A stretch of 64,000 nucleotides of DNA, from the IMG/VR virus record IMGVR_UViG_3300032235_001020, positions 1 through 64,000 of that record. One strand, given 5' to 3'. This DNA is from a virus. Below the pieces are notes generated by a model that saw only the letters and a list, made by a program, of their open reading frames with translations, was not told the DNA's origin and ran no database searches. This document shows positions 13,608 to 38,103 of this stretch, one piece after another. The stretch's first letter is position 1; each line of letters starts with the position of its first letter. Both the position numbers and the translations under genes were made by a program.

Positions 13608-13837
13608 GCGAACGCTACCGCTTGAACGTCCCGATCAGCAGCCCCCTGCAGCAAGTCGCTGCGGTGGTGGCGACGCGGGACTTTCTCTTGCGGCTGAGCG
13701 ACCCTCATGCGACCAAGCGGGTCCCTGGGGAGGTCAGGAAGGAGGCGCGGGCCCTACTGCGCCACTACCCTTTGCCGGAGCGACTGCGCCCTGTACTCGA
13801 GGCAGGCTTACAGGAGAGGCGACCAGATCCCCTGTAG
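13604..13837 (+). CDS. BPSL0761-like small protein
   Basis: TRDFLLRL...T.RVP.EVR.EAR.LLRHYP. Confidence 0.6.
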   Translation: MSERYRLNVPISSPLQQVAAVVATRDFLLRLSDPHATKRVPGEVRKEARALLRHYPLPERLRPVLEAGLQERRPDPL

Positions 13838-13882
13838 TCAATAGAGCAACTACCCTTCGAAGAAGTTACTCTATTGACTACA
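13833..13882. mobile_element. Putative attP site of the serine integrase
   Basis: 50-bp palindrome TGTAGTCAATAGAGCAACT-acccttcgaaga-AGTTACTCTATTGACTACA; 19-bp arms with 1 mismatch, central dinucleotide TC at 13857-13858; ends 14 bp before the integrase start. Confidence 0.8.
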
Positions 13883-13896
13883 TCAGGGTCAGGGCT

Positions 13897-15914: not shown

Positions 15915-16062
15915 GACGCGCGAAGAGTTTGAAGAACTGATGGGCTACGCGCCCACGGAAGAGGAAGCGAATGATTATCTACGTGAGATGTGGGAAACTG
16001 CCACAATGGAGTTGGACATGGACGAAATCGTCCTGACTCCTGACGATGATTCGGATCTGTAA
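15706..16062 (+). CDS. nblA: NblA-like phycobilisome degradation protein with acidic C-terminal extension
   Basis: ELTSEQKYLLRRVEIEAKAMSKDELVEAL matches the NblA pattern L[ST]xEQxFxL....MS.E...L. Confidence 0.65.
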   Translation: MEDMELTSEQKYLLRRVEIEAKAMSKDELVEALCTSWEARFKLKQTFIANSREAGFMFFLEERHPWQQPETREEFEELMGYAPTEEEANDYLREMWETATMELDMDEIVLTPDDDSDL

Positions 16063-17761: not shown

Positions 17762-18150
17762 TCAGCTACGTCATTACCGGTGCAGCCGCCATGTTGATTG
17801 GCATGGCCTCCGGGCAAGCCATTGTCCTGAGTGCGGGTCGGCGCCGGCTCTCGTACCAGGTCAAGGCCGTCGGCGGGCAGATCAGCGAGCTGGTCAGCCA
17901 GGTCAACGAGCTCAAGGAACAGGTGCCGACGATGATCTCGAGGGCTGAGGTGGAGCGGGCCTTTGCGCAGGTCGCTCAGATCGAGGCGCAGCGCCAGGCG
18001 GCCACGGTGCAGCAGGCTCGTGCGCAGGCCGTCTTTGGTGGCAGCAGGGGCGCGGGTGCCACCGCCGAGCTGAATACCGCGATCAACGCCCAGCTGAACT
18101 CCCTGACGGATCGGATCAACCGCATCAACCAGGAGTTCGGCGTCGGCTAG
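17758..18150 (+). CDS. TM-anchored coiled-coil protein
   Basis: GTGA overlap, hydrophobic N-terminus, heptad pattern. Confidence 0.6.
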   Translation: MISYVITGAAAMLIGMASGQAIVLSAGRRRLSYQVKAVGGQISELVSQVNELKEQVPTMISRAEVERAFAQVAQIEAQRQAATVQQARAQAVFGGSRGAGATAELNTAINAQLNSLTDRINRINQEFGVG

Positions 18151-18614
18151 TCCAGGCCGTCATCGTCGTCGTAAATCGATGGGCCTGTAGTTGCACATTG
18201 CTGCAGGCCATCGCTGCCCACCCAGCAGGCGCTCTGCCCTGGAGCATTGCCTTGCTGGGCGGGATGCTGCAGGCGGATTGGCGTCGAGCTGCCCCGGCCG
18301 TCGTACTTCGTGAAGGACTGACCATCGGGGCCGGAGAAGCGGTCGTCGGTGCCCCAGGCGTTGCGCTGGTATTCCATCAGGAACAGCAGGCAGCAACCCG
18401 CGTGGGCCAGGTGTGAGAACCCTGTCTCCGGGTCTCGGTCCTCGCCGCGCCACCAGGCGAAGATGTGGCGGCATAGGGCTGAGAAGTAGCGCCCCCACTC
18501 GGTGCCGCGACACCAGTTATTGGCGCTGTACTTCTCGGCGCCATAGGCCAAGACGTCCGCAATCTCGCCCACGGCGGCAAAGGGGATCAAGTCAAAGCGC
18601 GTCTTCGCTGACAT
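18147..18614 (-). CDS. dATP/dGTP diphosphohydrolase domain protein (DUF5664)
   Basis: K.RFDLIP, VL.YGA.KY...NW..G, RH..AW..GED.DPETG.SHLAHA. Confidence 0.88.
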   Translation of the reverse strand: MSAKTRFDLIPFAAVGEIADVLAYGAEKYSANNWCRGTEWGRYFSALCRHIFAWWRGEDRDPETGFSHLAHAGCCLLFLMEYQRNAWGTDDRFSGPDGQSFTKYDGRGSSTPIRLQHPAQQGNAPGQSACWVGSDGLQQCATTGPSIYDDDDGLD

Positions 18615-18690
18615 GGACCCCTTGTAATTTCGCCTAGGGTAAACAGAGGCGTGCGCTGTGGCAAGCGTTTCGCACGTCTGCTCATGCGCC

Positions 18691-19029
18691 ATGGATCGTC
18701 GCTACAAAGAAGCCCGCTTCTATAACGGCCTCCGTGCCAAGAGTGGTAGCCAGGAGCAGAGCGATCGGCTGGTGCGCTCCTATCTATCGCGGGCGCGGCA
18801 GGAGAACCGGGCCAGTCAGGACTACGGCGGCAGTACTGGTGGGGTGAGTAGCGCTGGCGGCGGGCTTGCTGTGGTGGCAGGACGCAACTTCGATACCAAG
18901 GAAGCCCGGGAGATCTTCCGCACGGAAGGCTCCGGCGACCTGGGCGGACGCGCCAACCTGGCTGAACTCAAAGGTTTTCGTCAGAGCAGGGCGTCAGCGG
19001 CGACGAGTGCGGCCCCTCCGGCAGGCTGA
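18691..19029 (+). CDS. Basic hypothetical protein
   Basis: ORF with upstream TAGGGT at 18635. Confidence 0.5.
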   Translation: MDRRYKEARFYNGLRAKSGSQEQSDRLVRSYLSRARQENRASQDYGGSTGGVSSAGGGLAVVAGRNFDTKEAREIFRTEGSGDLGGRANLAELKGFRQSRASAATSAAPPAG

Positions 19030-20562: not shown

Positions 20563-21276
20563 TCAGGGAGCGAGGAGTGCTTTGCCGCGGCGGTTTTCGG
20601 AATACCAGCCATAGATCTCCGGTACCCAGCGCTGCACTTGACCGGCGACAAGATCCATGAGGCACCGGATCTCGAATTGGGCGTCGCTCTTGAGGCGGAC
20701 ATCGAGCAGGTGTAGCCAGGCGCGCAGGTTGGCCGAGACGATGGCGTTCTGGAAGTAGTTGGTGATCAGCACACCACGGGCATGTTCCTCGGAGACGCCG
20801 CGCTCCCGGAGGCGGGCGTAGTCGATTGCTGAGGAAAGCGACATGGCCAGGGATTCTTCGACGTCGTCCTCAGTCCACTCGTAGGGATCGCCTTGCCGGT
20901 CGCGGTACTTACCAGGCGGGCGGACGTAGAAGACGTCTTCGATGGGGATTTCTCCGGCTGCAACCTTCTCGATGCGCTGCCCCGAGTACCGCATGGATTG
21001 CAGGTCGTAGGAGCAGCCGACGCGGTGCGTGCGCAGCTGCATCAAGGTGTTGTGATCGGCCTTGAGGGCCAGGGTCAGTTGCGGGTGCTCGAGTGGGCCC
21101 CAATGCCCCTTGCCGCCCTTGAGGAGACGCTCTACAGCGATCTTGCCGCAGGCGTCCTCAAGCAGGGCCGTCGAGGCGATGAAGTCCTCGGAGTAGTCGT
21201 TATGCAGCGCGATATAGACCAGTTGCTGCGGGCACTCCGTCGCAGCGACACGCTCGACCTTGAAAGCAGGCTGCAC
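20563..21276 (-). CDS. thyX: Flavin-dependent thymidylate synthase
   Basis: GHWGPLEH, QLRTHRVG.S...QS.RY (ThyX motif), EHAR..L, N.R...H.LD.R....AQ.EIR. Confidence 0.93.
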   Translation of the reverse strand: MQPAFKVERVAATECPQQLVYIALHNDYSEDFIASTALLEDACGKIAVERLLKGGKGHWGPLEHPQLTLALKADHNTLMQLRTHRVGCSYDLQSMRYSGQRIEKVAAGEIPIEDVFYVRPPGKYRDRQGDPYEWTEDDVEESLAMSLSSAIDYARLRERGVSEEHARGVLITNYFQNAIVSANLRAWLHLLDVRLKSDAQFEIRCLMDLVAGQVQRWVPEIYGWYSENRRGKALLAP

Positions 21277-23557: not shown

Positions 23558-24097
23558 TTAGCCCACCGTCAACGGGTCGAACAGCTCGTCGGCGTATCCC
23601 TCAAGGGCTGGCTCGATCGGACCGCTCATCGGGATCGACGACACGGCGACGCCGGCCTCGATGAACATGAGCTTGGCGGTCTCGAACGACTCTTGCCAGC
23701 GCAGGGGCATGACGAAGTTCGGGATGACGACCTTGTTGAAGCCCGCCTGGATGAGTTGGGCGGCGCACTGACTGCAAGTCATCAGCGGCCAGACGTAACA
23801 GGTGGCACCGTTGAGGCAAACGCCGTGCCGGGCGGCGTAGCAGATGAGGTTGGCCTCGGCATGCACCGTCATCTGCAGGCGCAGTTCACGATTACTTAGG
23901 CGGCTGATGTCGTCATTGACGTGCATCGGGATGCCGTTGTAGCCGGAGGCGAGGATGCGCCGTTCCCGCACGGCCACTGCTCCGACCTTGGTGCTGGGGT
24001 CTTTGCTCCAGCCAGCGATATTGCGGGCAATCGAAAGGAAGCGTTGGTCCCAGTGCTCAGGCGCCTTGGGCGGACGCATCTCAGGCGGGTTGGACAT
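23558..24097 (-). CDS. dCMP deaminase (ComEB/T4 cd-like)
   Basis: SKDPSTKVGA, SGYNG.P, HAEAN and C..C zinc motifs. Confidence 0.93.
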   Translation of the reverse strand: MSNPPEMRPPKAPEHWDQRFLSIARNIAGWSKDPSTKVGAVAVRERRILASGYNGIPMHVNDDISRLSNRELRLQMTVHAEANLICYAARHGVCLNGATCYVWPLMTCSQCAAQLIQAGFNKVVIPNFVMPLRWQESFETAKLMFIEAGVAVSSIPMSGPIEPALEGYADELFDPLTVG

Positions 24098-25357: not shown

Positions 25358-27850
25358 TTAGGCGGCGATGCCCTCGTCGGCCTTCATCCAAATGCGCCGT
25401 GCCTCGCGCCCAATCCTCACGCGCTTCTGCTGGTAGCCAAGGCTCTTGAGGGTGTCGGTCATGGCAGTCCGCACGCTGTTGTGGCGATCGATCGGGATCT
25501 CGAGCCACTCGTACAGGTCGCTGAGGACCACGAAGCTGCGGCCCTGGTGGACGCCCGAATGGCGCAGGCTCAGTGCTGTGCGGATCCTGGTGTCGAACGG
25601 GTTGTCGACGCGGAAGTTCTCCTGGTACTCCTGGATCTGCTTGAGCTCGTCGCTACTGAAGTTGTGAACGGGGTTGTCCTGGTAGGCCATGTAGGCCGCC
25701 GCCCAGATCCCATCACGGTCTTGCTTGAGACGATCCAGATCGATGATCAGGGTTTTGGGATCATCCGGACTGGGCACCTTGCCGGCAACGACGATCGGCA
25801 TGAAGCGCCTGTTGCCGGTGGGGTCGACGAAGAAGTCATCGCTGTTGGTGGCCCCGCAGAGCACGAAGGCCCGCATGAAGTTGCGCTCGTTCTCGTACTT
25901 GCGGGCAGAGCGATCCACCGGCACCGAGACCAGGTTCTTGAGCTCCTCGACGTAGCCCCGCTGGAAGTAGCGCTCGGTCTCGTCCAGGACGACAAACCAG
26001 CCGGCATGAAGCAGGTGAGGTTTTTCCTTGAGGCCGCGGATGCCCTGCTGGATCGTGGCGACCCAGGGGTAGACGCCTGGATCCGAGGGCGAAGGAGGCG
26101 TGATGTACTGGAAGAAGTTGGTCTTGCCGCAGTTCTGCGAGCCAATCAGGATCGGCATCCAGTCATGAGCGCAGCCGGGTGAGAGCACACGGGCGACAGC
26201 GCCCACCAGGAAGCGCTCGAGCACCACGTCCGCCAGCAGGCGTCCCTTCTCAGGGCCACGGGTGAAACATGGGTTCAGCAGGGGATCCGCCTTAAGACCC
26301 AGCAGCTCGCTGGCCAGGGTCTTGAAGTAGGGGCAGGGTTCTGCTGTGCCGGCGCAGTGGGTGAGGTAAGCCTGCACGGGATGGACGCGGTTCTCCCAGG
26401 CCGTGATGCCTGCGATGTCGATCACCGTGGTCTTGGGGTAGACCGTGCCGGTGCCGAGGCTGATGCGGCAGTAGGCGGTGGTGATGTCGTCGACGAGGCG
26501 GGGGGAATCGAGAGGGCCGTACTCGAGCTCCTGATTCATCATGTTGCGCCGCAAGCCCGGATAGAGGGCGTTGAGGCGGTCGCGGATGACGCGAACGGTG
26601 TCTTCTGGGACGTTGCCATCCCCCCTGCGGCGAGGAACGTCGGGGATAGGGCGATCGGGGCGACGGTCTTCGGGTGGGACGTGGCCGTCATCGATGAACT
26701 GGAAGCCGGGATCGTTGTCGTCGTCAAAGGGGTCCTCGTCATCATCTGGATCTGAGGATTCGAGCGGCTCGGGTGGCGCAAGGGTTGGAGCTGCGATGGC
26801 TGCCCAGGGGCGCTCGGCATCAAAGAGCCCAGGGGTGCTGTCGGCTGATTGCGGAGCGGGATTGCTGAGGCCCGTATCCCAGGAGTAGGGGGAGTCCTGG
26901 CCGCCATGGAGGAAGTCCTCGTGGTCGTAGCCGACTGCGCCGTGGTTCTTAGGTGGAGCAAACGCACTCTGACGGAGCTCGTCCGGCAAGGTCTTGGTCC
27001 AGCTGGGGTCTTCCTGCATGGCCAGGTAGAAGAGGGTCAGCAGGCTGGAGCGGGTGTTGCGGAAGGAATAGAAGAAGCGCTCGGTGCCCTGCTTACTGCG
27101 GTAGCCACTGGTGTGATGGCAGCGAGAAGCCCAGTTCTGCCAGGCCGGGAACACTGCCTCTCCGCCGGAGCAGGCCGCAGCGGTCACCTTGATGAAGCGA
27201 TCACGCTCGCCGTCTTCCGTGGGGGTGAGCACCTGCTCCAGGACATGGCAGGCCTGGCCGATGGTCTGATCGTCGTAGAGGGAGGCGTCTAGGCGGTGGC
27301 GAGCAGAGGCGACTTCTGCCTGGGTCCTGGCGTCCTGGATGATCGAGTCCGGCAGCAGGGCATCGGGCTGCCAGAGCGGGACCTGGGCGTTGTCAGCGCC
27401 ATAGAACAGGCGGCAGGGATCAGTGCAGGATTTGTCGCCGCCCAGGGCTGTAGTCAAGATGGTGACGACGGCCTTGTAGAGGTCTGGATCCTCCATGCGC
27501 TTGGGCAGGCGGAAGATGACCCGGTAGCGAGGGGCGTCGTCGCGGTGGCTGTGGGTGGTGTAAACGAAGCAGGCATGGGTTGCCAGGGGGTGGGCGCGGA
27601 AGGCGTCGAGGTCGAGGCCGTTGTCGACATCCACAACAGCTAGATCAGCGTGGCGGAATGCAGCAGAACTGCGGTGCTGTGAGCTCATCGCTGCCGAGAT
27701 GAACGCACCTCCGGTAGTGACGTGATCACGCAGCTCCTGGAGGGAGCCCTCGCGGGACTGCCAGTTGGCGGCGAAGTCGTTCTGCCAATGGACAGGTTTG
27801 TTGCGGATCGAGGGGTGAACAGAGAAGCAGATGGGTGAGGCGGATGACAT
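25358..27850 (-). CDS. Primase-helicase: AEP-like N-terminus, PriCT-2-like region, VirE/VapE P-loop ATPase
   Basis: VVDVD, YTT.SH, RYRVIF.L, D.SC.D..RLFYG; Walker A G.QNCGKT, Walker B VVLDE, ATN...F..D.TGNRRF. Confidence 0.9.
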   Translation of the reverse strand: MSSASPICFSVHPSIRNKPVHWQNDFAANWQSREGSLQELRDHVTTGGAFISAAMSSQHRSSAAFRHADLAVVDVDNGLDLDAFRAHPLATHACFVYTTHSHRDDAPRYRVIFRLPKRMEDPDLYKAVVTILTTALGGDKSCTDPCRLFYGADNAQVPLWQPDALLPDSIIQDARTQAEVASARHRLDASLYDDQTIGQACHVLEQVLTPTEDGERDRFIKVTAAACSGGEAVFPAWQNWASRCHHTSGYRSKQGTERFFYSFRNTRSSLLTLFYLAMQEDPSWTKTLPDELRQSAFAPPKNHGAVGYDHEDFLHGGQDSPYSWDTGLSNPAPQSADSTPGLFDAERPWAAIAAPTLAPPEPLESSDPDDDEDPFDDDNDPGFQFIDDGHVPPEDRRPDRPIPDVPRRRGDGNVPEDTVRVIRDRLNALYPGLRRNMMNQELEYGPLDSPRLVDDITTAYCRISLGTGTVYPKTTVIDIAGITAWENRVHPVQAYLTHCAGTAEPCPYFKTLASELLGLKADPLLNPCFTRGPEKGRLLADVVLERFLVGAVARVLSPGCAHDWMPILIGSQNCGKTNFFQYITPPSPSDPGVYPWVATIQQGIRGLKEKPHLLHAGWFVVLDETERYFQRGYVEELKNLVSVPVDRSARKYENERNFMRAFVLCGATNSDDFFVDPTGNRRFMPIVVAGKVPSPDDPKTLIIDLDRLKQDRDGIWAAAYMAYQDNPVHNFSSDELKQIQEYQENFRVDNPFDTRIRTALSLRHSGVHQGRSFVVLSDLYEWLEIPIDRHNSVRTAMTDTLKSLGYQQKRVRIGREARRIWMKADEGIAA

Positions 27851-28067
27851 GCGGATGCTCTGCAGGCGTGCGGTGTGACTGCAGTGGCGCGCACCCTAGC
27901 GCTGCACGCAAGCCTTGTCACGCAGGTACCAAGCGCCGGTATGCAGGGTGTGTGCCGGACTAAATCCCTTGGTATGACTGGCGTTGTACCGTAAGCGTGA
28001 CGAACTTGACCAGGGTGCGGCACAGCTTGCGTCGCATGTGTATGGTGCAGAAACAACGGGAGAAGTT

Positions 28068-28697
28068 ATGGCCAAAGTCGTCCCGCACACGCCGATCGAG
28101 AAACAGCAAATCGAGCGCTTCATTAGCTGCCTGAACCAGGCGATGGTGGCCGGCCACCTCAGCCAGCGGGGGCTGTGCTCGAAAATCGAGGTGACAATCG
28201 GCTCACTGACCAAGTACCTGCGGGGCGATATAGCCCCGTTACGCGTGGGCCTCGGTATCCAGGCGCTCCTGGCCCAGGAGCTGGGTGTGACGCTGGATGC
28301 CCTCTACGCCTACTACCAGACGGGTAAGTACGTCACGGAGATCAGCGTGGGGCAGGTGGAGAGCTGGATCCGCAGTGAGGCCGGTCAGCTGGACCTGCCT
28401 CGTTTGCTGGCATCGTTGAAGGATGCCGGCGAGCGCTGGGTGGACGAGCCGGTGCCGGCACAGGAGGCGCCAGAGCCAGTAAGTCCACCGCTCTATACCT
28501 GGCCGATCGAGGAGCTCAAGGATGCGGGCGTGAGCGATCTGTTCCGCGAGCGGCTGGGCCTAACGGATGAGGCACTGAGGCTGCTGGCGACCACGGGCGA
28601 ATTCGAGGAGGAGCTGGCCGAGGCCTTTGGGATCGCATGCAACTACCAGAAGGCGGCAGTGATCGAGGCCTTTACAAACCGGGCTGCGATCGGGTGA
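28068..28697 (+). CDS. XRE-like HTH transcriptional regulator (candidate repressor)
   Basis: LSQRGLC..I.VT.GSL.KYLRG...P and LA.ELGVTLD.L; divergent from the primase; extended -10 TGTGTATGGT upstream. Confidence 0.7.
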   Translation: MAKVVPHTPIEKQQIERFISCLNQAMVAGHLSQRGLCSKIEVTIGSLTKYLRGDIAPLRVGLGIQALLAQELGVTLDALYAYYQTGKYVTEISVGQVESWIRSEAGQLDLPRLLASLKDAGERWVDEPVPAQEAPEPVSPPLYTWPIEELKDAGVSDLFRERLGLTDEALRLLATTGEFEEELAEAFGIACNYQKAAVIEAFTNRAAIG

Positions 28698-28736
28698 GCT
28701 GAATGCGTGGTATGGTTTGCTTGCGAAAGATCAAGT

Positions 28737-28767
28737 GCGGGTCCTGTGGTGGGGCCCGCCTTTTTTA
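28737..28767 (+). terminator. Intrinsic terminator
   Basis: GCGGGTCC-tgtggtg-GGGCCCGC followed by CTTTTTT. Confidence 0.8.
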
Positions 28768-28958
28768 TGGGGTTTATGGGAGAGCGATAATTATTCTCAG
28801 CACTGGCATGGCAATGAGACCCCGGGCTTGGTGACCTCGGGATCTCACGAGCACACACGGTGCCCAGGTGGCAGCCAATGCACAAGCTGTTGTGCGCTGC
28901 TGCTAGAGAAATGCTAACGAGAAGATCTTTAGACTACGAGTAATGCATCGGTAGCGCA

Positions 28959-29372
28959 GTGCGTACAGCTGGGACTGCTTTGGGGTATGGCGACCCGGTG
29001 ACGATGACTGAGTTGGTCGCTCGTGCGCCAAGCTTCGATTTGGGTTACCCGAAGATTCCAGGCCGGGATCTCGAGGGGATTCCTAATGCGAATGATCCAG
29101 TCATGAAAGAGAGGCTGCGTCAGCGACTGCTCCGCAATCCAGATGGTGGCCAGGAACTGCCTGGCTTCCTGCAGAAAGCAGAGGCTCCCGGTGGCCTGGG
29201 CCCTGTCGCCATGGACCTGCTCTACGACGGAGCCCAAGATGGCGACTACTCGAATATGCCGGTCATCCGTGACGTGGTGGGCGACGAGAGGGAGCGTGAT
29301 GCGCAACTGGAGGAGTATCGCCTGCGTGCATTTCCTTCTCCCGGTCTGAACGCTCCCTTGCTGTATAGCTGA
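28959..29372 (+). CDS. Hypothetical late protein
   Basis: TAGACT at 28930; first gene of a tightly coupled plus-strand operon. Confidence 0.55.
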   Translation: MRTAGTALGYGDPVTMTELVARAPSFDLGYPKIPGRDLEGIPNANDPVMKERLRQRLLRNPDGGQELPGFLQKAEAPGGLGPVAMDLLYDGAQDGDYSNMPVIRDVVGDERERDAQLEEYRLRAFPSPGLNAPLLYS

Positions 29373-29374
29373 CC

Positions 29375-30295
29375 ATGACAGAACGTAAGGCCGGATCTCA
29401 GCTGATTGGATTCTTCCTGCACGACCCGCTGGGAGAGGAGCTACTGGAGGGAACTGTTGGTGGCTTGATGGCCGGTGCATCGCAGTTGGGTAGCGATCAG
29501 ACACTGGGGCAAACGGCACTGGAGACGGCGACAGCGATTGCAGGCGGCATTGGGCTTGGGATGGCGGGCCGCCGACTGGGTGCCATGGCTGGCAAGCGCC
29601 TGCATAAGGGTCCACTCAAGGAGCAGGATTCGATGGTGGCGAACCTGGCTCGGACCCTGGGGTCGGAGACGACAGCCGGTGGGCTGCGGGACCAGGGCGT
29701 CGTCATGAAGACAGCCGTGCAGGAGGCGCTGGTCAATGAGACCTCAGCCCAGCTGGCGAGGGAGGCGATGAGCAACCCTGCGGAGTTCGCCAAGCGCTAT
29801 GGCATGTCCGCTGAGCAGTTCACGCAACTACTGCCAGTCGTGAAAACGGGGCGAACTGCGGCGGCTGCAGCAGAGGCAATGAAGTCGATGCCACCCGAGC
29901 TGAAGGAGCAGGCTCTCAAGAAGCTGTCCGAGTACGAGGCGGTGGAGAAACTGTTGACCGGCCAGGCCGCAGGAAGTATGGATGAGCTGATCCAGAGCGT
30001 GGCATCGTCTGTGGATCGCCTGCAGAAAGACGTTGATCCCTCTGATCTGGAGGGTCTGCAGGCTGTGCTGAAGGGACGCAACCCGAGTGACGCGATCCGC
30101 TCTCTGCTGAATCCGGCGCCACCAATTACGGGTGAGCATGTGGGCCGGGCTCTGGGCCGCATGATTGGTGACGAGGTGGGCATCCTCGGTGGCCTGGCAG
30201 CGGGATCACTGCTTGCTCAGCAGCTAGGTATCGAGAGCCCGAAGGACCGCAAGATCCGGGAACTCGAGCAGCAAATGCAGGGAGCTGGCCGATGA
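29375..30295 (+). CDS. Ala/Gly-rich helical protein, putative internal virion/ejection protein
   Basis: Glycine-zipper segments (GGIGLGMAG, GILGGLAAG). Confidence 0.6.
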   Translation: MTERKAGSQLIGFFLHDPLGEELLEGTVGGLMAGASQLGSDQTLGQTALETATAIAGGIGLGMAGRRLGAMAGKRLHKGPLKEQDSMVANLARTLGSETTAGGLRDQGVVMKTAVQEALVNETSAQLAREAMSNPAEFAKRYGMSAEQFTQLLPVVKTGRTAAAAAEAMKSMPPELKEQALKKLSEYEAVEKLLTGQAAGSMDELIQSVASSVDRLQKDVDPSDLEGLQAVLKGRNPSDAIRSLLNPAPPITGEHVGRALGRMIGDEVGILGGLAAGSLLAQQLGIESPKDRKIRELEQQMQGAGR

Positions 30296-30627
30296 TGAAG
30301 CGACGAATGGCAGGCGACGATGATGTGCTGCGGCTGCTCAGAAGCGATCTCAGTGGCGGCTTGGATGATTCGGTTGCTAATGAAGATCTAGGCCTGAGCG
30401 ATGAAGACCTTTATCGCGGTCAGTGGGGTGTAGTGAGCGCGGACGAGAAAGAGGAGCTACAGGAGCACCTGGAAGGAAGCGTGTATCCATACCAGCCTTT
30501 GTATCCGGCCGAGCAGGATGCTGTGCAGATGGCCTATGAGGCTGATGTGATTAAACGACTGACGACATTGATGATGCAGTATCCAGGTGAATCGCCAAAT
30601 AGACTGCTAGCACTGGCGCTTCAGTAA
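30292..30627 (+). CDS. Acidic hypothetical protein
   Basis: ATGA coupling. Confidence 0.6.
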   Translation: MMKRRMAGDDDVLRLLRSDLSGGLDDSVANEDLGLSDEDLYRGQWGVVSADEKEELQEHLEGSVYPYQPLYPAEQDAVQMAYEADVIKRLTTLMMQYPGESPNRLLALALQ

Positions 30628-30767
30628 TGGCCAAGCAACGCATGGCTGGCGAGAAAGGCAAGGAGCTAGCCCAGGCCTGCTGGAAGGGCTACGAGGCGAT
30701 CGGCTTCAAGCAGAAGGACGGCAAGAAGGTGCCTAGCTGCGTACCGAAGAAGGAGGGCAACGGCTGA
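30627..30767 (+). CDS. 46-aa CWKGY-motif protein (absent from ORF track)
   Basis: MAKQRMAGEKGKELAQACWKGYEAIGFKQKDGKKVPSCVPKKEGNG; TAATG and TGATG coupling on both sides; CW.GY...G.K.K.GK.VP.CVP motif recalled from cyanophage proteins. Confidence 0.75.
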   Translation: MAKQRMAGEKGKELAQACWKGYEAIGFKQKDGKKVPSCVPKKEGNG

Positions 30768-31207
30768 TGGCTCCCCTGGGCGACTGGGGCTGGACGGGGG
30801 AGGCAGCGGAGCTGGACTGGTACTACCCGCTGGACCCAGGCCGGTACAACTATTCGCTTGCCTACGCCAAGGCCAGGCAGCTGGGGATCGAGCATGAGGC
30901 TGCCGTGCAGTCTGCGCAGCGTCAGGTCTACGGCGCGGTCAGGTCTAAGAACCCTCAGCCGGAGAATGCTGACAATCGGTCCTGGAGCGCTAAGCGGCTG
31001 TATTCCACGCTGCCTGCGTTGGGCGCCGCGCAAGCGGCAGTAGAGGAGCTGGAGGCAGCACCGGTCCCGCAGGCGCAAAGCGGTAGACGTATGGCCATGC
31101 GGTATGAGCTAGCTACCCTGGCCGCACTGGGTGGGGTGTATGCACTTTCTGCATTAAGTCAGCCAAGGGCCGAAGTGGAGCAGGAAAACTATGCGGGGGC
31201 GGTCTGA
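30767..31207 (+). CDS. Hypothetical protein with a C-terminal hydrophobic segment
   Basis: Translationally coupled ORF. Confidence 0.6.
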   Translation: MAPLGDWGWTGEAAELDWYYPLDPGRYNYSLAYAKARQLGIEHEAAVQSAQRQVYGAVRSKNPQPENADNRSWSAKRLYSTLPALGAAQAAVEELEAAPVPQAQSGRRMAMRYELATLAALGGVYALSALSQPRAEVEQENYAGAV

Positions 31208-31494
31208 TGGCTGAGTCAATCCGGTATGCCGGCGAAGTCTTCCAGGGCTACAACAAGCCCAAGCGCACCCCGGGCGACAGCAAGAAGTTTGCGGTCCTGG
31301 TCAAGGATGATGAGGGAGAGAACAAGATCGTCAGGTTTGGTGATCCAAGAATGGAGAACTACCGCAATGGCCCTCGCGGTGAAGGCGGGCACGGCGATGA
31401 AGAGCGCAGGGAGGACTTCAAGCGCCGGCATAACTGCGATGAGAAAACAGACAGGACCACGCCAGGCTGGTGGAGCTGCCAGTGGAGCTGGTGA
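31207..31494 (+). CDS. Conserved phage/large-DNA-virus small basic protein (DUF5754/DUF6321-like)
   Basis: GYNKPKRTP, KKFAV, VRFGD, RR..FK.RHNC, WWSC..W. Confidence 0.7.
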   Translation: MAESIRYAGEVFQGYNKPKRTPGDSKKFAVLVKDDEGENKIVRFGDPRMENYRNGPRGEGGHGDEERREDFKRRHNCDEKTDRTTPGWWSCQWSW

Positions 31495-31554
31495 GCCTAG
31501 AGATCCTGGCTCTAGTGGGCTTCTTAAGATAGGCAGAGTGCAATAAGTCCTGCA

Positions 31555-32982
31555 GTGCCTGGTCGGGAAGAAGCGCTAGATCGTGCTCGTCGCGTGCGCT
31601 CAGTGGACATCATGGGGTTGGCTGGTGAGTTCGTCGAGCCATACGGCCTCGATGTGCAGCCTCCCCTGGAGAACGCACCATTTCCGTTGCACGATGCAGG
31701 GCATCGCCGTGGCAATATTCCGGCCACTATTTACGGAGAGCTGCTTCAGAATGTTCACGACCATGCAGCTTTTGACAAGCTCTATGGTTCCGGAGCAATT
31801 CATGGGAGCCCGCCAAGCTACAGGGAAGGCGTGTCAGGTGAAGCTGGTGACGCTAGGCCGAGTTCATTTGTGAACTACGGGGGGATGGAGGACAAGAATC
31901 ACTTCGATCAGCGCAGAGATCGCGCCGTCAGGATGGGAGCGACACCGGATGACTTCGAGGCTGGAGGTGAATATGGATGGGATGCAGCCGTTGCTCAGAA
32001 GATAACGGCTCAGCAAGCGGATCTCAGCAGGCTGATGAAGGTTGCGGAGGATCGATTCAGTAAGGGTGACTATACCTTCTTTCAAGGAGCTGGTGGGTAC
32101 GACCCTGCGCAAGGGTTCATGCCATCTGTCGACCTGCGGAATACAAGAGAAGTGTCGCCAGAGGATGTCAATACTGCCAGGACTAGAGGCGAAGACTTTG
32201 CGACTGCCTTGCGCAAGGGCTACGACGATGCGGTAGCCAATGGTGAGTATCGCCCGCAGCGTGGCGTGACCGATGGGATGATTCATGCTGCCGACCTATC
32301 GGATGCGGCCATGCAGGGCCAAGTCAACGTGGGTCGCGGATGGGCCGACGAGGGCTTCTTCCCATACAAGGACAGGGTGGGTGCGCTGTCGAATCCTCCA
32401 GCTCGGATTGCCCCGCGAGTCCTGGAATCGCCCGCTGCCCTGCGACAAGTGCTGGATCAAGCGGCTGAGGCCAGAAGTGCACGCGACTTGAGCCGGTTGA
32501 CTGGCGCGGTCCGAACCGGGGCTACTGCCACGACAGATATCGCCGGATCCGTCCCATTGTTTGACCCGGAATTTCGCAATGCCGTTGAGACTGGAAACGT
32601 CCGCAAGGCGGGAGAGCAGGTAGCTAAGGAATACCTGGCTGGGACCCTTGCAGCCCCTCTAGTGGGTCTGGGAGCAGGGACCCTGCAGCGCATGGCACCT
32701 CAGGTCGCGTCGAAAGCTCTGCCCATTGCCGCTGGAGCTGTGCGTACCGCCAACCCCGTAGCGGTCGTCTCTCAGCTGGGTGGCAGTAGCAAGCCGTCGC
32801 GCCGTCAGGTTGCTGTTGAGCGCAATCAAGATCCCGCCGCCTTCGGCGCCCAGGGTCCAAGCGCGGACCCCCAGCTGCTCAGGGCAGAGGCGGCACGTCG
32901 GCGTGGCGGTCGTTGGAAGATTGGCGGCTTTACTGTGCCTGATCTTGGGATCAGCGAAGCCGGGGGACTGCTCTTCCGTTAA
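31555..32982 (+). CDS. Hypothetical large protein, possibly virion-internal
   Basis: 475-aa ORF with TAAGAT 30 nt upstream. Confidence 0.6.
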   Translation: MPGREEALDRARRVRSVDIMGLAGEFVEPYGLDVQPPLENAPFPLHDAGHRRGNIPATIYGELLQNVHDHAAFDKLYGSGAIHGSPPSYREGVSGEAGDARPSSFVNYGGMEDKNHFDQRRDRAVRMGATPDDFEAGGEYGWDAAVAQKITAQQADLSRLMKVAEDRFSKGDYTFFQGAGGYDPAQGFMPSVDLRNTREVSPEDVNTARTRGEDFATALRKGYDDAVANGEYRPQRGVTDGMIHAADLSDAAMQGQVNVGRGWADEGFFPYKDRVGALSNPPARIAPRVLESPAALRQVLDQAAEARSARDLSRLTGAVRTGATATTDIAGSVPLFDPEFRNAVETGNVRKAGEQVAKEYLAGTLAAPLVGLGAGTLQRMAPQVASKALPIAAGAVRTANPVAVVSQLGGSSKPSRRQVAVERNQDPAAFGAQGPSADPQLLRAEAARRRGGRWKIGGFTVPDLGISEAGGLLFR

Positions 32983-33296
32983 CCCGCCTGGCCGCGGAAC
33001 CACTTCTGCTTACTACTGAACCACTTCGCGAGAGTGGTGGGATCCTGGGGTCCAACCAGGTGATCGCTGGGGTCCGGTTCGCCCAGGTCGAGGGCCTGGC
33101 AAAAGGCATCGAGGCTGCCCTCCTGGACGTCGCCTTGGATGGCAGAGCGGCGTGCCTTGCGCAGCCAGCTGTCGACAGTGGGATTCAGGGAAGCCAGCTT
33201 CTGCAGCCAGGTCATGTCGCTGAGTTCGACTGCGGCTCCCTTGGCAATTCGATCGCAGATGAATTCAACGCGCAGCCTGGTTTGTGTCGACAGCAT
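32979..33296 (-). CDS. Conserved cyanophage hypothetical protein
   Basis: MLSTQ.RLR.E.IC..I..G..V.L.DM.W..KLA, LD.F...LDLG.PDP. Confidence 0.7.
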   Translation of the reverse strand: MLSTQTRLRVEFICDRIAKGAAVELSDMTWLQKLASLNPTVDSWLRKARRSAIQGDVQEGSLDAFCQALDLGEPDPSDHLVGPQDPTTLAKWFSSKQKWFRGQAG

Positions 33297-33346
33297 CCAA
33301 ATGCTGCATGTCTACGAAGTCTAGGAATTCCCTACCTGGAAACCCG

Positions 33347-34135
33347 TCAGGCGGGCTGAAGGATCTTGCAGTCGCCAGCCATGGACTCCTGCTGTTCACG
33401 CTCAAGCTTTTCCTGTTCGATCAGCTCGTAGTACTTGCGGACCTTCTGCAGCCACTTGATGCGGTAGTGCACCAGGTCGTCGCCGTGCAGGTAGAAGGAC
33501 TGATCAATCTCAGGCGTGGAGACCAGGATCTGAGCGCAGTCGATCTTGAGATCCAGGGTTTCCTTGCAGGCCAGGGCGTAGGCCGCTAGCTGCACGGAGC
33601 ACTTGTTGAACTTGTTCCAGCCGGTGAAATTACTGCGGTCCTTGTCCTTGGGGTAGAAGCGACAGTACGGCTGGTTGCTGGTTTTGAAGTCAGCCAGGAT
33701 CGTGACTCCATTGCGTACGCCGACCAGGTCCGGGCAGCCGGCATAGCCATGCTCATGCGACCAGATGCGGTGGATGCCATCGTCGCCAGAGCAGAACTTC
33801 CACTCTGGGCGCAGAGGCTTTTCACTCCAGAGGAAGTAGTCGTATTTGTCGAGATGCTTGGCCAGACCGTCCCAGAACGGGCGGTATTCATCGGGGATCT
33901 CGGTGGGTAGGCCGCGGATGTAACGCTCACAGGCGTAGTGGACGGCAGTGCCCCGAGCAGCGGCTGCTTCCTTGCCGCCAGGGTTCTTGAGGCCCCAGTT
34001 GTAGAGGGCCTTCTTGCTGTGCTCAGATGCTGTCTTGCCGAGGATGGCGGTGACCGAGGCGTAGGCCTTGTTGGGATCGTCACCGGACCTGTAGAAGCGA
34101 GTGCCGTCTACCTCAAAACGTGTAGCGACACCCAC
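33347..34135 (-). CDS. PD-(D/E)XK exonuclease (Cas4/lambda-exo-like)
   Basis: Y.SVT.IL, RGT.VH, YAG..D, ADFKTS, QLAAY. Confidence 0.88.
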   Translation of the reverse strand: MGVATRFEVDGTRFYRSGDDPNKAYASVTAILGKTASEHSKKALYNWGLKNPGGKEAAAARGTAVHYACERYIRGLPTEIPDEYRPFWDGLAKHLDKYDYFLWSEKPLRPEWKFCSGDDGIHRIWSHEHGYAGCPDLVGVRNGVTILADFKTSNQPYCRFYPKDKDRSNFTGWNKFNKCSVQLAAYALACKETLDLKIDCAQILVSTPEIDQSFYLHGDDLVHYRIKWLQKVRKYYELIEQEKLEREQQESMAGDCKILQPA

Positions 34136-34182
34136 TCACCAGCATGCTGCTGTATGTAATGTAACGAGTTGCTACGTGATGT

Positions 34183-34449
34183 CTATTTGGCGCTCTCGTC
34201 TGGGCAGTCAGACGCGGCCCCAGGGACGCCCTTGGTATCGCTCAAGTGGGCAATGGCCTGCACCGTGACGATGGGCGAGGGTCCGTAGCCGACGTTGACC
34301 TTCCATCGGCAGCCATCGGCATCCACCAGGCTGGTCATGCCGGCGTTGTCCCTGGCAATGATGAATAGGGCCGTCTTGGTGTCTTGATAAACAATATGCG
34401 CATCTTGCATAGCCCGCCAGTAGCGGTAGATCTCGAGCGGGCTACTCAT
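34183..34449 (-). CDS. Hypothetical protein
   Basis: Overlapping operon ORF. Confidence 0.5.
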   Translation of the reverse strand: MSSPLEIYRYWRAMQDAHIVYQDTKTALFIIARDNAGMTSLVDADGCRWKVNVGYGPSPIVTVQAIAHLSDTKGVPGAASDCPDESAK

Positions 34450-34744
34450 GGCCAAAGACCTCGAGGCAGAGGGCACGCGCCTCGGGTGTGAGCGCGCCGC
34501 AAGGAGAGGGCTGGCCGAGGGAGTTTTGCTGAAGCAGCATCTGTGCAGCTTCCTGGAGCTTGGGCAGCTCTTCTGGATCGAGCAGGACGTGGCCCTCGGT
34601 GCCATGGGAGTCCTGCTTGACGGAGACGAAGAAGCCGCCGCCCATGTCGTCGAGCGAGACAACCGTGGCTTCCGGTGTGACCAGAGGGTTGTCGCCCAGG
34701 CGGTGGATCGTGACCTGGGTGATGGTGCAGACGTAGTCGCTCAT
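34442..34744 (-). CDS. Hypothetical phage protein
   Basis: T.VSLDD.GGG.F..V.Q...LDPEE motif; ATGA coupling. Confidence 0.6.
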   Translation of the reverse strand: MSDYVCTITQVTIHRLGDNPLVTPEATVVSLDDMGGGFFVSVKQDSHGTEGHVLLDPEELPKLQEAAQMLLQQNSLGQPSPCGALTPEARALCLEVFGHE

Positions 34745-35178
34745 GACTCTTCGCTGGGGGTGTCGCCCTGGTTCCAGGGGTCGTTGATCAGTTCGGTTTG
34801 CTCTTCGAGGTAGTCGTAACTGCCTTGCTGGGAGCGATAGGCCGAGAGTTCGTCGAGTAGCTGGCGGGCAAGCAGGGTGCCGCCCTTGATCAGTTCGTTG
34901 ATGTCTGAGGCGCCCATGTCCATGCGCTGCGCCAGGAGCGGGCCCATCAGCGCCAGGTAGGCCAGGGTCATCTGGTCGCACTGGTAAGCGGAGAAGGACG
35001 CACCGCCAGAGGTGAAGCCATTGACCAGATAGGTCAGATTCTCCAGCTGATCTGTGTGCATCCGCTGACCTTCCAGCACCTTGATCAGCAGCCGATTGGT
35101 CGTCTGCAGCTCGGCCAGCAGGAGCTTGCTGGTGTCAAAGAGGGTCAGATTCTCCGAAGTCGGAGGCAGTGAGGTCAT
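34741..35178 (-). CDS. Hypothetical helical protein
   Basis: In-operon ORF. Confidence 0.55.
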   Translation of the reverse strand: MTSLPPTSENLTLFDTSKLLLAELQTTNRLLIKVLEGQRMHTDQLENLTYLVNGFTSGGASFSAYQCDQMTLAYLALMGPLLAQRMDMGASDINELIKGGTLLARQLLDELSAYRSQQGSYDYLEEQTELINDPWNQGDTPSEES

Positions 35179-35619
35179 GAAAGATGTCTCCTTGGAGGGC
35201 GCGAGCCAGCAGCAGGGAGCAGCGCTGGATGTAGGGCACATGAGGCCAGGCCTCGTGAATGTCCTGGGCCTCATGGCGCTGCTGGACCGCGGCGACATCC
35301 CTGCTGTTGCGAGCCGCGCAGAGCTCCTCGAGGATCTGAGGGTCAGGCGCGGACGACAAGGATCGCTGGCTGGGGCTTGGAATCAATGTATCGGTAGTCG
35401 CTCAGCACGCCAAGGCTTGCAAGGTGAGCCAATGCAGATCGTTGCACGGACTCAGGTATGTCGGGCAGGGGCGCGAGCAAAAAGAGATCGCCGGACTCCG
35501 ATTGCGCGAACGGCATCGTTCTGTTCATAGCCCGCTGGTAGTGGTCAGCAGCTGAGAGAAGGGCGCAGTCAGCAGTAGCGGGCATCGTTAGCGTAAGAGG
35601 ACAGCGTGTGAGCCCCGGC

Positions 35620-35904
35620 ATGAGCAATGCACACCCGGAGCGTGGGATAGACGACGGCCTTGAGCCCACCGTTGGGGAACAGCTACGGCTCGCGCAATTT
35701 GTAAATGCGCTGGACCGAGCAAATGAGCAGGAGCTGAGGGAAATTGCCAAGCAAATGGCTCAGCAGGTGATGGTCACCTACCCTTCAGCGTTGCGCTTCC
35801 TGGCGCGGGAAGCGGCTAGGAACCTATCGGGGCAGCAGTGGTCGCCAGAGTCTTCAGAGAAGCTGCTGGCGGCGCTGAGCGGCCCGGTTAAGGGGCCTCA
35901 ATAG
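35620..35904 (+). CDS. Divergent NblA-like two-helix protein
   Basis: PTVGEQLRLAQFVNALDRANEQELREIAKQM resembles phage NblA; TAGCGT 31 nt upstream. Confidence 0.4.
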   Translation: MSNAHPERGIDDGLEPTVGEQLRLAQFVNALDRANEQELREIAKQMAQQVMVTYPSALRFLAREAARNLSGQQWSPESSEKLLAALSGPVKGPQ

Positions 35905-36056
35905 TACCGGTGCATTGGCACTTTTGTGGCATTCCGGCAGGAGCTGGAAAGTCTATGCAGAAAGTGCAAGAGCCCTGCTGCGTGCTAGAGGCAGCAGGGC
36001 TAGATGCGTAGCTGATCTGCAGCATGGTGCTGCAAATGAGCACTGTGTATCGGTAG

Positions 36057-36758
36057 TTACCAGCCCGCGGGCATGGCTTCTGCAGACACGGTGGCTACCT
36101 CGTGGTCGGCGCCCAGTTGATCGCGGTGCGTGGGAGGTAGGCCTTCAGGTCGGCCAGCATTGGGCTTGCCGGCGAAGGGGTCGCCGTTGACGTAGAGGGC
36201 AGGCAGCCAGATGGAATCAGCGACTTCGCTCCAGCGCTTCTCGTCGGCCTTGGTGGGCACCTTGAGGGTGGGGGTCAAGGTGTAGGCCGTGTTCATCTCA
36301 GTGCCCTTGCGCTTGAGGGTGAGATAGAAGTTGGCCACGCCGGAGGGCAGGATCTGGTAGTCCTCGAGGTTCAGGACCTCTTCAAGCTGCTCGCGCAGGT
36401 CCTTGCGCTGGAACGTGTAGATCAGGTAGTCGTCGTCTTCTTTGGACAGTCCGACGAAGGACAGGAAGTAGCGGGGCTTGTCCTTTTCGCCAGTGCCATT
36501 GGTCTTGCCGGCCCAGGTCAGACCGATCTCTTCGGCGAAGTTCTCGGGGTATTTGGGGAACTTGCGGGGCTGGCCGTCCATCGTGAAGTAGGACCAGCCG
36601 GCAATCACGTGGCCGGTGTCGTGCAGGCCGCAGAGTCGGAAGGTGGTGGACTCGCCATCCTTGAGGCGCTGGCCTGGATCGAAGTAGCGGGTGCGCTTGG
36701 TGCCGGCGGTGTCAGTTGCGCCGGAAGTCGGGCGGTAGTCAGACGGTAGGAATCCCAT
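36057..36758 (-). CDS. Phage ssDNA-binding protein (gp32-like, tentative)
   Basis: MGFLP..Y, L.DGE...FR, GW.YF, KRKG....T.Y.L.P, LPALY.NGDPF. Confidence 0.55.
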   Translation of the reverse strand: MGFLPSDYRPTSGATDTAGTKRTRYFDPGQRLKDGESTTFRLCGLHDTGHVIAGWSYFTMDGQPRKFPKYPENFAEEIGLTWAGKTNGTGEKDKPRYFLSFVGLSKEDDDYLIYTFQRKDLREQLEEVLNLEDYQILPSGVANFYLTLKRKGTEMNTAYTLTPTLKVPTKADEKRWSEVADSIWLPALYVNGDPFAGKPNAGRPEGLPPTHRDQLGADHEVATVSAEAMPAGW

Positions 36759-36776
36759 GGTTATGTCAGTAGGTGG

Positions 36777-37439
36777 TTAGTTGTTCCAGTCGCAGGGCAT
36801 GTTGTCGGCGGTGTTAACAAAGTCCTCGTGGTCGTATCCCACGGCCTTGGTGCCAGCGGCGGGGTTGCTCGTGCCCTTGTTCCCGCGCCCGCGTTCAAAG
36901 GCGCGGATCGAGCGGCCTTTGACTTCGCTGTAGGGCTTCCCCTCGCGATTAGTACGTAGATCGAGGGTGCCCTCGACCATGGCCAAGGTGCCGACGGGCA
37001 AGGAGATCAGCCGGTCCATGACGTAGCCGTAGCCACGCAGGGTGAACCAGTCGGTTACCTCTTCGCCATTGACCATGCGGTTGATGGCCAGCGAGCGAGA
37101 TGCGGATTTGTTGGACTCAGCGACCCGTGCTTCTTTGGCCAGGCGGCCGGTGACCGTCACCTGGTTGATGTAGGCGTCGGGGGAGACATCGCAGAGGGTG
37201 TGAATGAACACAACCGTCTGACTGTCTTCGAGAAGAAGGTCGCCAGCGATGATCAGGGTCTGGCCTGCGGTCTTGGTCTTCAGGGCCTCGGCTGTCTTAC
37301 TGCCTGATGCGCAACGCAATAGAACAGGAACCTGGTCCTTGCCGTTGGTTGCGGCAAAGACTTCCAGGACCTGCTTGCCGTGCGCGACGGTTTCGGCAGG
37401 TTGCGCCGCCAAGGCCACAACAAGAGTTGCGGTGCTCAC
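36777..37439 (-). CDS. ssb: Single-stranded DNA-binding protein with tandem OB folds
   Basis: INQV.V.GRL.KE, SLAINR, TDWF.L..YG, G....VEG.L. Confidence 0.8.
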   Translation of the reverse strand: MSTATLVVALAAQPAETVAHGKQVLEVFAATNGKDQVPVLLRCASGSKTAEALKTKTAGQTLIIAGDLLLEDSQTVVFIHTLCDVSPDAYINQVTVTGRLAKEARVAESNKSASRSLAINRMVNGEEVTDWFTLRGYGYVMDRLISLPVGTLAMVEGTLDLRTNREGKPYSEVKGRSIRAFERGRGNKGTSNPAAGTKAVGYDHEDFVNTADNMPCDWNN

Positions 37440-37497: not shown

Positions 37498-38103
37498 TCA
37501 GCCGAAGTGCTGGATCCAGTCGGGCAGGGCTGGGATCGGCTCGGCGGTCTGGGGCATGACCAGGATGATCAGCTCGATGGTCTCGCCCTGCAGCCGCAAC
37601 GGACCGCCGTCGAAGGCCGAGAGCACCAGCGAGTCAGCGAGCAGTCCGGCCGCCTTGATGGCGCGCTCGAGGTAGGCGACCCGGTACCGGCCAGCGGTTT
37701 CGCTGAGCGTGGGGGTGGCACTCCATCGCTGCACGCAGGCCGCCAGAGCGCTGTCGATGTCCGGGAAGGGGGTGATGCTGTGCTGGAGCGGCAGCTGTTT
37801 GCCGTTGTTGCTGCTGGTCTTGTAGTAGGTGGTGACCGTGGCCGTCTCGCCGTCGATCACGAGACCGCGCTCGGCAGTCTTGATGCCACTGCTGGCCTTG
37901 AGTAGCTCTGGGCTGGGGATGATGGTGATGGACTCATCGGCTGTGCCCTTGCGGTCAAAGCCAATGGCCGTCACCTTGCCCTGATCACTGGCAGCTAGGA
38001 GCACCCCGCCGCAGTGAGGGCGGATGTGCACCGACTGGTAGGGCGCGTAAGGCCCCGTGAAGGAACCCACGGCAGCCAGGAGGGCGGAGTTGAACTGCAG
38101 CAC
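37498..38103 (-). CDS. DNA polymerase III beta-clamp-like protein
   Basis: V.I.P..GGV.L.ASD.G, FPD, C-terminal LVMP. Confidence 0.55.
   Translation of the reverse strand: MLQFNSALLAAVGSFTGPYAPYQSVHIRPHCGGVLLAASDQGKVTAIGFDRKGTADESITIIPSPELLKASSGIKTAERGLVIDGETATVTTYYKTSSNNGKQLPLQHSITPFPDIDSALAACVQRWSATPTLSETAGRYRVAYLERAIKAAGLLADSLVLSAFDGGPLRLQGETIELIILVMPQTAEPIPALPDWIQHFG

Follow-up and report, generated by a model that had tools for sequence, protein, structure and literature searches.

The stretch of DNA analysed here (the window) covers 64,000 nucleotides, positions 1-64,000 of IMG/VR record IMGVR_UViG_3300032235_001020, a virus record that is complete at 84,980 bp and has direct terminal repeats. 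Its minus strand encodes a primase-helicase, a single-stranded DNA (ssDNA)-binding protein of the SSB family and a second protein whose predicted structure resembles gp32, the ssDNA-binding protein of phage T4 (table 1). An initial annotation of the window had proposed that all three carry one motif, G.DHE.{9}P..W, with identical spacing, that it is a phage-specific docking peptide and that it recruits the three proteins to a common partner. Here, we report that the peptides are present and conserved, and that they resolve into two separate elements (box A and box B), each common to a pair of proteins through the SSB tail.

The primase-helicase has a VapE/D5-type helicase domain at residues 540-747 (Pfam VapE-like_dom, E 3.5e-38), primase matches near its N-terminus (residues 17-179) and matches to PHROG helicase and primase families. 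An acidic linker joins the primase-like and helicase parts at about residues 300-470, with a net charge of -20 over residues 300-420. The SSB belongs to PF00436 (31.9 bits against a cut-off of 26 for the OB fold, and 27.4 bits in a six-frame search) and lacks the canonical tip of that family. Residues 1-90 (37170-37439, minus strand) form a conserved extension before the OB fold; the Pfam match begins at residue 91.

The third protein has no Pfam or PHROG family, and a profile of 41 homologues run against PDB sequences returned no gp32 (one insignificant match only). What identifies it is its fold. An AlphaFold2 (AF2) model built from the 41 homologues (mean predicted local distance difference test score, pLDDT, of 76.8) has the RB69 and T4 gp32 cores as its top Foldseek matches (E 8.5e-4, template modelling (TM) score 0.39-0.46). 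VIA gives Z 9.8 against RB69 gp32 (root-mean-square deviation 5.4 over 158 aligned residues) and Z 9.4 against T4 gp32 (5.2 over 165 residues), the next unrelated row being at 5.6. The gp32-like label is thereby borne out as a shared fold, not a shared sequence family. Weak matches to PHROG families named 'single strand DNA binding protein' are seen for a distant relative, L030. The zinc site of T4 gp32 is Cys3His; among the cysteines of the 41 sequences only C43 is conserved in at least 90%, and H50 is invariant, so that, going by sequence alone, the gp32 zinc site is not evident.

Table 1. Features of the window, with the replication proteins and their peptides first and other genes last (positions count from the first letter of the window)
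Feature	Position	Strand	Size or residues	Basis
Primase-helicase gene	25358-27850	-	830 residues	Pfam, PHROG
Box A of primase linker, GYDHEDF (AVGYDHEDF = 26912-26938)	26912-26932	-	307-313	
SPYSW, the P..W half of the proposed motif in the primase	26879-26893	-	320-324	Alignment
Second linker motif of primase, PGLFDAERPW	26804-26833	-	340-349	Alignment of primases
SSB gene: N-terminal extension of about 90 residues, OB fold 91-164, tail 192-220	36777-37439	-	220 residues	Pfam, alignment
Box A of SSB tail, GYDHEDF	36819-36839	-	201-207	Alignment of 23 sequences
Box B of SSB, MPCDW, then NN	36786-36800	-	214-218	Alignment of 23 sequences
gp32-fold ssDNA-binding protein, disordered tail 201-233	36057-36758	-	233 residues	AF2 model, Foldseek, VIA
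GADHE of gp32-like tail, part of element GLPPTHRDxLGADxE	36099-36113	-	216-220	
Box B of gp32-like protein, MPAGW, C-terminus	36060-36074	-	229-233	Alignment of 41 sequences
Two-domain sliding-clamp-fold protein, directly upstream of SSB	37498-38103	-	201 residues	AF2, Foldseek
PD-(D/E)XK exonuclease	33347-34135	-	262 residues	PHROG phrog_298 E 3.5e-32; Pfam PDDEXK_1
Nucleotide-pool genes: dATP/dGTP diphosphohydrolase N-terminal domain PF18909, ThyX, dCMP deaminase cluster	18147-18692, 20563-21276, 23558-24097	- (all)		
Large serine recombinase and open reading frame	13501-15144 and 15706-16062	+ (both)		Resolvase domain E 1.2e-23; NblA 18.3 bits against cut-off 25

Two elements joined through the SSB tail

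The three peptides lie exactly where the initial annotation had put them (26879-26932, 36786-36839 and 36060-36113). A list of open reading frames (ORFs) and a six-frame scan place all three on the minus strand; the plus strand at the same coordinates translates into unrelated text. Specifically, GYDHEDFLHGGQDSPYSW is residues 307-324 of the primase-helicase, GYDHEDFVNTADNMPCDW is residues 201-218 of the SSB (followed by NN) and GADHEVATVSAEAMPAGW is residues 216-233 of the gp32-like protein, ending at its C-terminus. Translated in all six frames, the window contains the strict pattern three times, where amino-acid composition predicts 0.0013 occurrences. A less stringent search (DH[ED], then W 4-16 residues on) that covered the complete genome of 84,980 bp, and that would include every strict match, found no further one. 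A full-text literature search for GYDHEDF, YDHEDF and GADHEV returned no relevant paper, with subscription journals and supplements outside its coverage.

The likeness is closest between the primase and the SSB. Both contain AVGYDHEDF, identical at all nine residues, and the 27 nucleotides that encode it differ at exactly four, all of them synonymous third codon positions, as had been noted from the letters. An identity of nine residues between two genes of the same phage could in principle go back to an event at the DNA level in the recent past (gene conversion, for example, or duplication of a short segment) and not to selection on a peptide. Such an event is, however, hard to reconcile with differences at four of the nine third positions and nowhere else, with flanks that are unrelated, and with the distant relatives, in which both families keep the peptide in differing copies (in L004, the SSB reads GYSHSDF and the primase GYAHEDF). 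We give this explanation almost no credence, and reject gene conversion on the third-position differences and the diverged copies.

The best ungapped 18-mer between each pair of proteins was scored against shuffled sequences. The SSB and the primase score 60, with a shuffle maximum of 40 (0/300 shuffles reach the score). For the SSB and the gp32-like protein, the score is 42, reached by 2/300 shuffles and, when only the 40-residue tails are compared, by 0/2000. The gp32-like protein and the primase score 31, which 97/300 shuffles reach and which is chance level. That is, the SSB resembles each of the other two proteins, and these two are not alike above chance.

Relatives of the three proteins show the same division. 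Database searches gave 64 gp32-like homologues and 59 SSB representatives (43 at E<=1e-10), and scanning viral contigs and genomes with the gp32-like protein gave 45 loci; the counts below refer to the 64 gp32-like homologues, the 43 SSB representatives, 28 SSB loci and 20 full-length primases. The GenBank phage collection gave no match by DNA search or by protein search. The strict pattern is found in 11/64 gp32-like homologues, 0/43 SSB representatives, 4/28 SSB loci and 1/20 primases. The spacer has between 4 and 15 residues in gp32-like homologues; in the SSB, it has 6-12 residues between the E position of GYDHE and the proline of the tip (4-10 when counted after F). As a unit of 18 residues with fixed spacing the motif is not conserved, and the proposal of one exact motif in three proteins gives way to two elements.

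Box A, GYxxxDF, is present in all 28 SSB loci and all 20 primases, and is kept down to about 35-40% SSB identity. In the primases, the more specific form GY.HEDF occurs in 15/20, and its extension GY.HEDFLG is sharply conserved in 15/20; the Tyr and Phe anchors are Y308 and F313. In an alignment of 23 SSB sequences, G201, Y202 and F207 are invariant and the D-H-E positions between them vary, while a looser version of the box (GY....[FY]) holds in 28/28 SSB loci and 35/43 representatives. Box B is a tryptophan tip, often MPxxW, found in 28/28 SSB loci and 63/64 gp32-like homologues. The same SSB alignment has W218 invariant and P215 conserved in at least 90% of sequences, and the Trp falls within the last four residues in 28/28 loci. 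W233 is invariant in the 41 aligned gp32-like sequences; across the family, Trp is the last residue in 59/64 and within the last four in 63/64, and 45/64 have an MP tip. At the level of genomes, 28/28 have Trp at the extreme C-terminus of both ssDNA-binding proteins. Taken with the shuffle scores, in which the SSB is like both partners and the others are at chance, this conservation makes the SSB tail the hub, with one element in common with each of the other two proteins. The synonymous nucleotide differences, and the retention of the box A anchors and the Trp tips, point to selection at the protein level; this is the conservation expected of a docking peptide, as the initial annotation had supposed.

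A more sceptical explanation is that no function is shared: every family would have a conserved tail or linker element of its own, and the exact 18-residue match in this genome would be a coincidence of this lineage among acidic low-complexity regions. The scarcity of the strict pattern, the variable spacing and the chance-level score between the gp32-like protein and the primase all fit it, and so does the make-up of the two halves. GADHE is the gp32-like family's own element, lying within the longer GLPPTHRDxLGADxE (R212, D213, G216, A217 and D218 are invariant in 41 sequences; GAD is present in 64/64 homologues and G.DHE in 38/64). In the primase, the P..W half proves peculiar to this lineage: apart from this genome, SPYSW is found in the nearest relative (L001) alone, inside an insertion that other primases lack. 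On the other hand, the nine-residue identity between SSB and primase is beyond all 300 shuffles, with Tyr and Phe anchors invariant in both families over long divergence. Trp tips on both ssDNA binders in 28/28 genomes, with Pro-Phe in a sister clade (see below), are likewise hard to obtain without selection on the tip. As a general account we regard it as quite unlikely; it is true of the gp32-like/primase pair, but box A and the Trp tips are difficult to explain in this way.

A tryptophan tip that grades into the canonical acidic tip

The SSB tail is acidic (net charge -4 over the last 25 residues) and ends in ..ADNMPCDWNN, without the canonical ..DD[IL]PF tip. Within the SSB family, however, tails form a series. 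It runs from ..GYDHEDFVNTADNMPCDWNN (..GYDHEDF..MPCDWNN) through ..GMDDSDFQGDDDMPFS or ..DSDFQGDDDMPFS and ..EPDDMPY to ..DDDLPF and ..FDDQEEMPF, with ..DDDMPFS and ..DDMPY among the intermediate tips that lead on to canonical ..DD[IL]PF; canonical PF tips appear only in the more distant SSB matches. The tail of the phage SSB reads, from these sequences, as the canonical ..DF-DDD-IPF plan, apparently stretched and with Trp in place of Phe. A motif that had seemed to be without precedent in fact grades into the acidic tip described in PMC7145534.

The gp32-like tail leads to a similar point from a different protein. Its residues 201-233 are predicted to be disordered (pLDDT <50) and its last 25 residues have a net charge of -3. 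In a distant sister clade (L030-L042, 26-27% identical), all 13 gp32-like proteins end in ..(V/A)D(E/D)DG(A/E)PF, e.g. ..DEDGAPF or ..DDDGEPF. Since this clade ends in a PF tip, the gp32-like tail appears to behave, within its family, as an exchangeable SSB-type tip, and it is of the Trp type exactly in the lineage whose SSB is also of the Trp type. No SSB or clamp-fold homologue was found at the L030-L042 loci. For three genomes with a Phe or Tyr tip on the SSB (P0090, P0098 and P0067), scans made to compare the tip of their gp32-like protein yielded a single marginal locus and were otherwise empty; a scan with the SSB alignment brought back mostly contigs that were in the set before. In L030, the one locus of the clade scanned for context, the gp32-like gene (9962-10582, plus strand) adjoins a RecE-like exonuclease, RusA and a DnaB-like helicase, which fits a gp32-fold annealing or binding protein in a two-component recombinase.

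Probable docking tags and their candidate readers

We consider it probable that the peptides are docking tags of the SSB C-terminal (SSB-Ct) type, placed in disordered acidic regions and copied onto partner proteins. They sit in tails and a linker, as the initial annotation had it, and these regions are disordered or acidic (gp32-like residues 201-233 by pLDDT, primase residues 300-420 by charge), with conserved aromatic anchors at Y202, F207 and W218 of the SSB and W233 of the gp32-like protein. On this account, the two anchors of the SSB tail, box A and the Trp tip, which a variable acidic spacer separates, recur singly on the other proteins: box A in the linker that joins the two domains of the primase-helicase, and a Trp tip at the very C-terminus of the gp32-fold protein. 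Proteins with a common anchor could then take turns at one pocket on one or more partners, which would tie the primase-helicase, and ssDNA under either binding protein, to the other components of replication and recombination.

Several observations count against this account and temper our confidence in it. The three-way motif dissolves in relatives, and the likeness between the gp32-like protein and the primase is at chance (97/300); the Tyr and Phe anchors of box A occur in 0/64 gp32-like homologues. Many gp32-like tails have lost the MP before the Trp that the SSB retains, and, among the relatives examined, the Pro before the Trp does not co-vary between the two proteins within loci. The sole SSB/gp32-like feature common to all relatives is a Trp near the end, and the two tips therefore need not share one pocket. 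In addition, readers of canonical SSB tips grip the free carboxylate of the terminal aromatic residue. In most of the SSBs here 1-3 residues follow the Trp, so that the free carboxylate is not on the aromatic residue. Finally, none of the tests run here identified a binding partner; a common partner, as first proposed, is not supported.

A different role for the same tails would be autoregulation. The tails may act mainly as ssDNA mimics that bend back onto the OB folds of the SSB and the gp32-like protein (and the primase linker onto its own DNA-binding surface), tuning affinity for ssDNA and cooperativity and not recruiting a common partner, a view that partly overlaps with docking. It has good parallels: according to PMC7145534, the acidic tip of E. 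coli SSB also binds transiently to unoccupied DNA-binding domains of SSB itself, in competition with partners, and PMC12339929 describes a tail of T7 gp2.5 that controls its release from ssDNA. Both tail-bearing phage proteins are OB-fold ssDNA binders, and their tails are acidic with aromatic residues. Yet the tails of the known systems also recruit partners, so the mimic role is not exclusive, and GY.HEDFLG in 15/20 primases is more specific than a generic polyanion mimic requires. We therefore hold autoregulation as the main role to be unlikely, although it keeps a real chance.

If the peptides are docking tags, the genome narrows the choice of readers. Searches for Pol A, Pol B and Pol III alpha families in the complete 84,980-bp genome (one genome checked) found none, and none of the other large early genes of this phage is a polymerase. 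Without a phage polymerase, outside machinery has to be recruited, and the reader is more likely to be a host protein, either of the replisome or one that interacts with SSB, or else a product of the phage's own module. In that module, the candidates are the clamp-fold protein, the exonuclease and the primase-helicase.

The clamp-fold protein had been called clamp-like in the initial annotation, and its predicted structure agrees. The AF2 model (pLDDT 87, predicted TM score 0.83) has 366 Foldseek matches in the PDB at E<=0.001, with beta clamps and PCNA in all the top rows (TMq 0.5-0.6), and its top matches in BFVD are phage 'Pol III beta' proteins of about 200 residues (TM 0.6-0.72). Judged from this model, it shares the clamp fold and not the DnaN sequence families: it has no Pfam match, PF02768 was not found in the genome at E<=0.1, and the family profile found no match among PDB sequences. 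Its gene adjoins the SSB in the loci of relatives too. Near its C-terminus, M183-P184 is invariant and resembles the end of beta clamps, which terminate in ..MPMRL. No clamp loader turned up among the proteins scanned, although no search was aimed at clamp loaders. A model of the complex with SSB residues 181-220 scored 0.00 against a mark of 0.32, a run without controls that weighs neither way on binding.

A further feature of the primase linker bears on clamps. The second linker motif, PGLFDAERPW, starts about 27 residues after box A and lies outside the motif first proposed; its family consensus is Q[GS]LFDxxxPW, and [LIM]F[DN].{2,4}PW occurs in 19/20 primases. The beta-clamp-binding consensus is QL[SD]LF. 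By its sequence, Q[GS]LFDxxxPW may loosely recall beta-clamp-binding peptides, a likeness that is suggestive given the nearby clamp-fold gene. One can go further and propose that the clamp-fold protein reads the tags on the SSB, the gp32-fold annealing protein and the primase-helicase, and perhaps Q[GS]LFD too, and bridges them to host Pol III. The phage clamp would then be a tool-belt that takes over the host replicase by a private Trp-for-Phe tip code, unread by the host. We regard this extended scheme as improbable in its full form.

The three proteins belong to a conserved set of genes. About 28 of the 45 loci contain the module of clamp-fold protein, SSB, gp32-like protein, a 185-residue protein, exonuclease and primase-helicase; the exonuclease is present in 28 related loci. 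The 185-residue ORF (34741-35298, minus strand) probably starts at residue 41, where the Atlas entry begins (relatives have 127-150 residues), and a search of the ESM Atlas with this protein gave no usable match. In a subset of its homologues, ..L(I/L)(N/D)DPW precedes an acidic tail at the end of the protein. GY[LI]PDAF, present in seven homologues, was considered as a box A and rejected, as it sits in the folded middle of the protein. The whole replication module is also found on 35-52-kb contigs binned to metagenome-assembled genomes: L045, L046 (Methanobacteriota archaeon) and L047 (Pirellulales). These contigs are probably viral and mis-binned, or prophages, and give no reliable host.

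Other genes in the window speak to the lifestyle of the phage. The nucleotide-pool cluster includes a PF18909 match at E 8.8e-31. PF18909 proteins have been linked to phages with modified bases; no PurZ-like gene was found among the proteins scanned. The large serine recombinase suggests a temperate phage. The NblA match is below threshold, and the cyanophage label it might support is a hint and not a result.

The principle of shared short docking peptides is a textbook one: bacterial genome maintenance recruits its proteins mainly by way of SSB tips, and the T7 tails are the textbook case of a phage that coordinates its replisome through common peptides. The present system is clean and conserved, and it lends itself to direct tests. 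The analysis divides the motif into two elements, traces the tail back to the canonical tip, adds a sister clade with a Phe tip, places the likeness between the gp32-like protein and the primase at chance level, and contributes the fold evidence for the neighbours and the absence of a polymerase. In this lineage, with at least 28 uncultured relatives that have the module, the tip would have lengthened and exchanged its Phe for Trp, and its two halves would have been copied to two further proteins. The readers, if found, would reveal how a polymerase-less phage plugs its helicase and ssDNA binders into a host replicase, and whether an altered tip code insulates phage proteins from host partners. 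The invariant anchors, namely Y202, F207 and W218 in the SSB, W233 in the gp32-like protein and Y308 and F313 in the primase, are the mutational targets.

Comparison with known docking systems

Four known systems offer points of comparison. Peptides that bind clamps include the beta-clamp peptide QL[SD]LF, the PCNA-interacting PIP box and the C-terminal tails read by T4 gp45. By such peptides, in their disordered regions or at their C-termini, several replication proteins dock on one hub; the phage peptides are similarly short and similarly placed, and a clamp-fold gene lies beside the SSB. They differ in that neither box A nor the Trp tip fits the clamp-binding consensus sequences, the nearest look-alike being Q[GS]LFD, a different motif of the primase linker.

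The C-terminal domain of T4 gp32 binds other replisome proteins. As in T4 and RB69 gp32, the 233-residue protein combines a gp32 core fold with a disordered acidic C-terminal tail. Unlike them, it has no match to the sequence family, it has an invariant Trp at its end, where the sister clade has a canonical ..DGAPF, and it belongs to a module with an exonuclease, as in two-component recombinases.

The bacterial SSB-Ct offers a closer parallel. PMC7145534 describes the E. coli tip MDFDDDIPF as a docking site for many partners, with RecO, PriA, PriC and chi among those that bind it. The phage tail is likewise disordered, with an upstream DF, acidic residues, [IM]P and an aromatic residue. It departs from the bacterial tip in several ways: the terminal aromatic residue is Trp and not Phe, in the SSB usually with 1-3 residues after it; the spacer between the DF box and the tip is variable, and the DF box is extended to GYxxxDF; and the elements are copied onto a primase-helicase linker and a gp32-fold protein.

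In phage T7, gp2.5 (the SSB) and gp4 (the primase-helicase) have acidic C-termini that end in Phe. According to PMC12339929, the gp2.5 tail anchors on the front basic patch of the gp5 polymerase, and a DTDF peptide that mimics the gp4 tail occupies the same polymerase site in 6P7E. Here, as in T7, the SSB and the primase-helicase of one phage have the same acidic-aromatic peptide (AVGYDHEDF). Unlike in T7, the primase-helicase peptide is internal (residues 307-313 of 830) and not C-terminal, and the sequences are unrelated to the T7 tails. Moreover, the reader of the T7 tails is absent as this phage has no polymerase of its own, so that the T7 solution, in which a phage polymerase reads the tails, cannot apply as such. 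With these differences, the tails of T7 gp2.5 and gp4, together with the bacterial SSB tip, are functionally the closest systems to the peptides described here.

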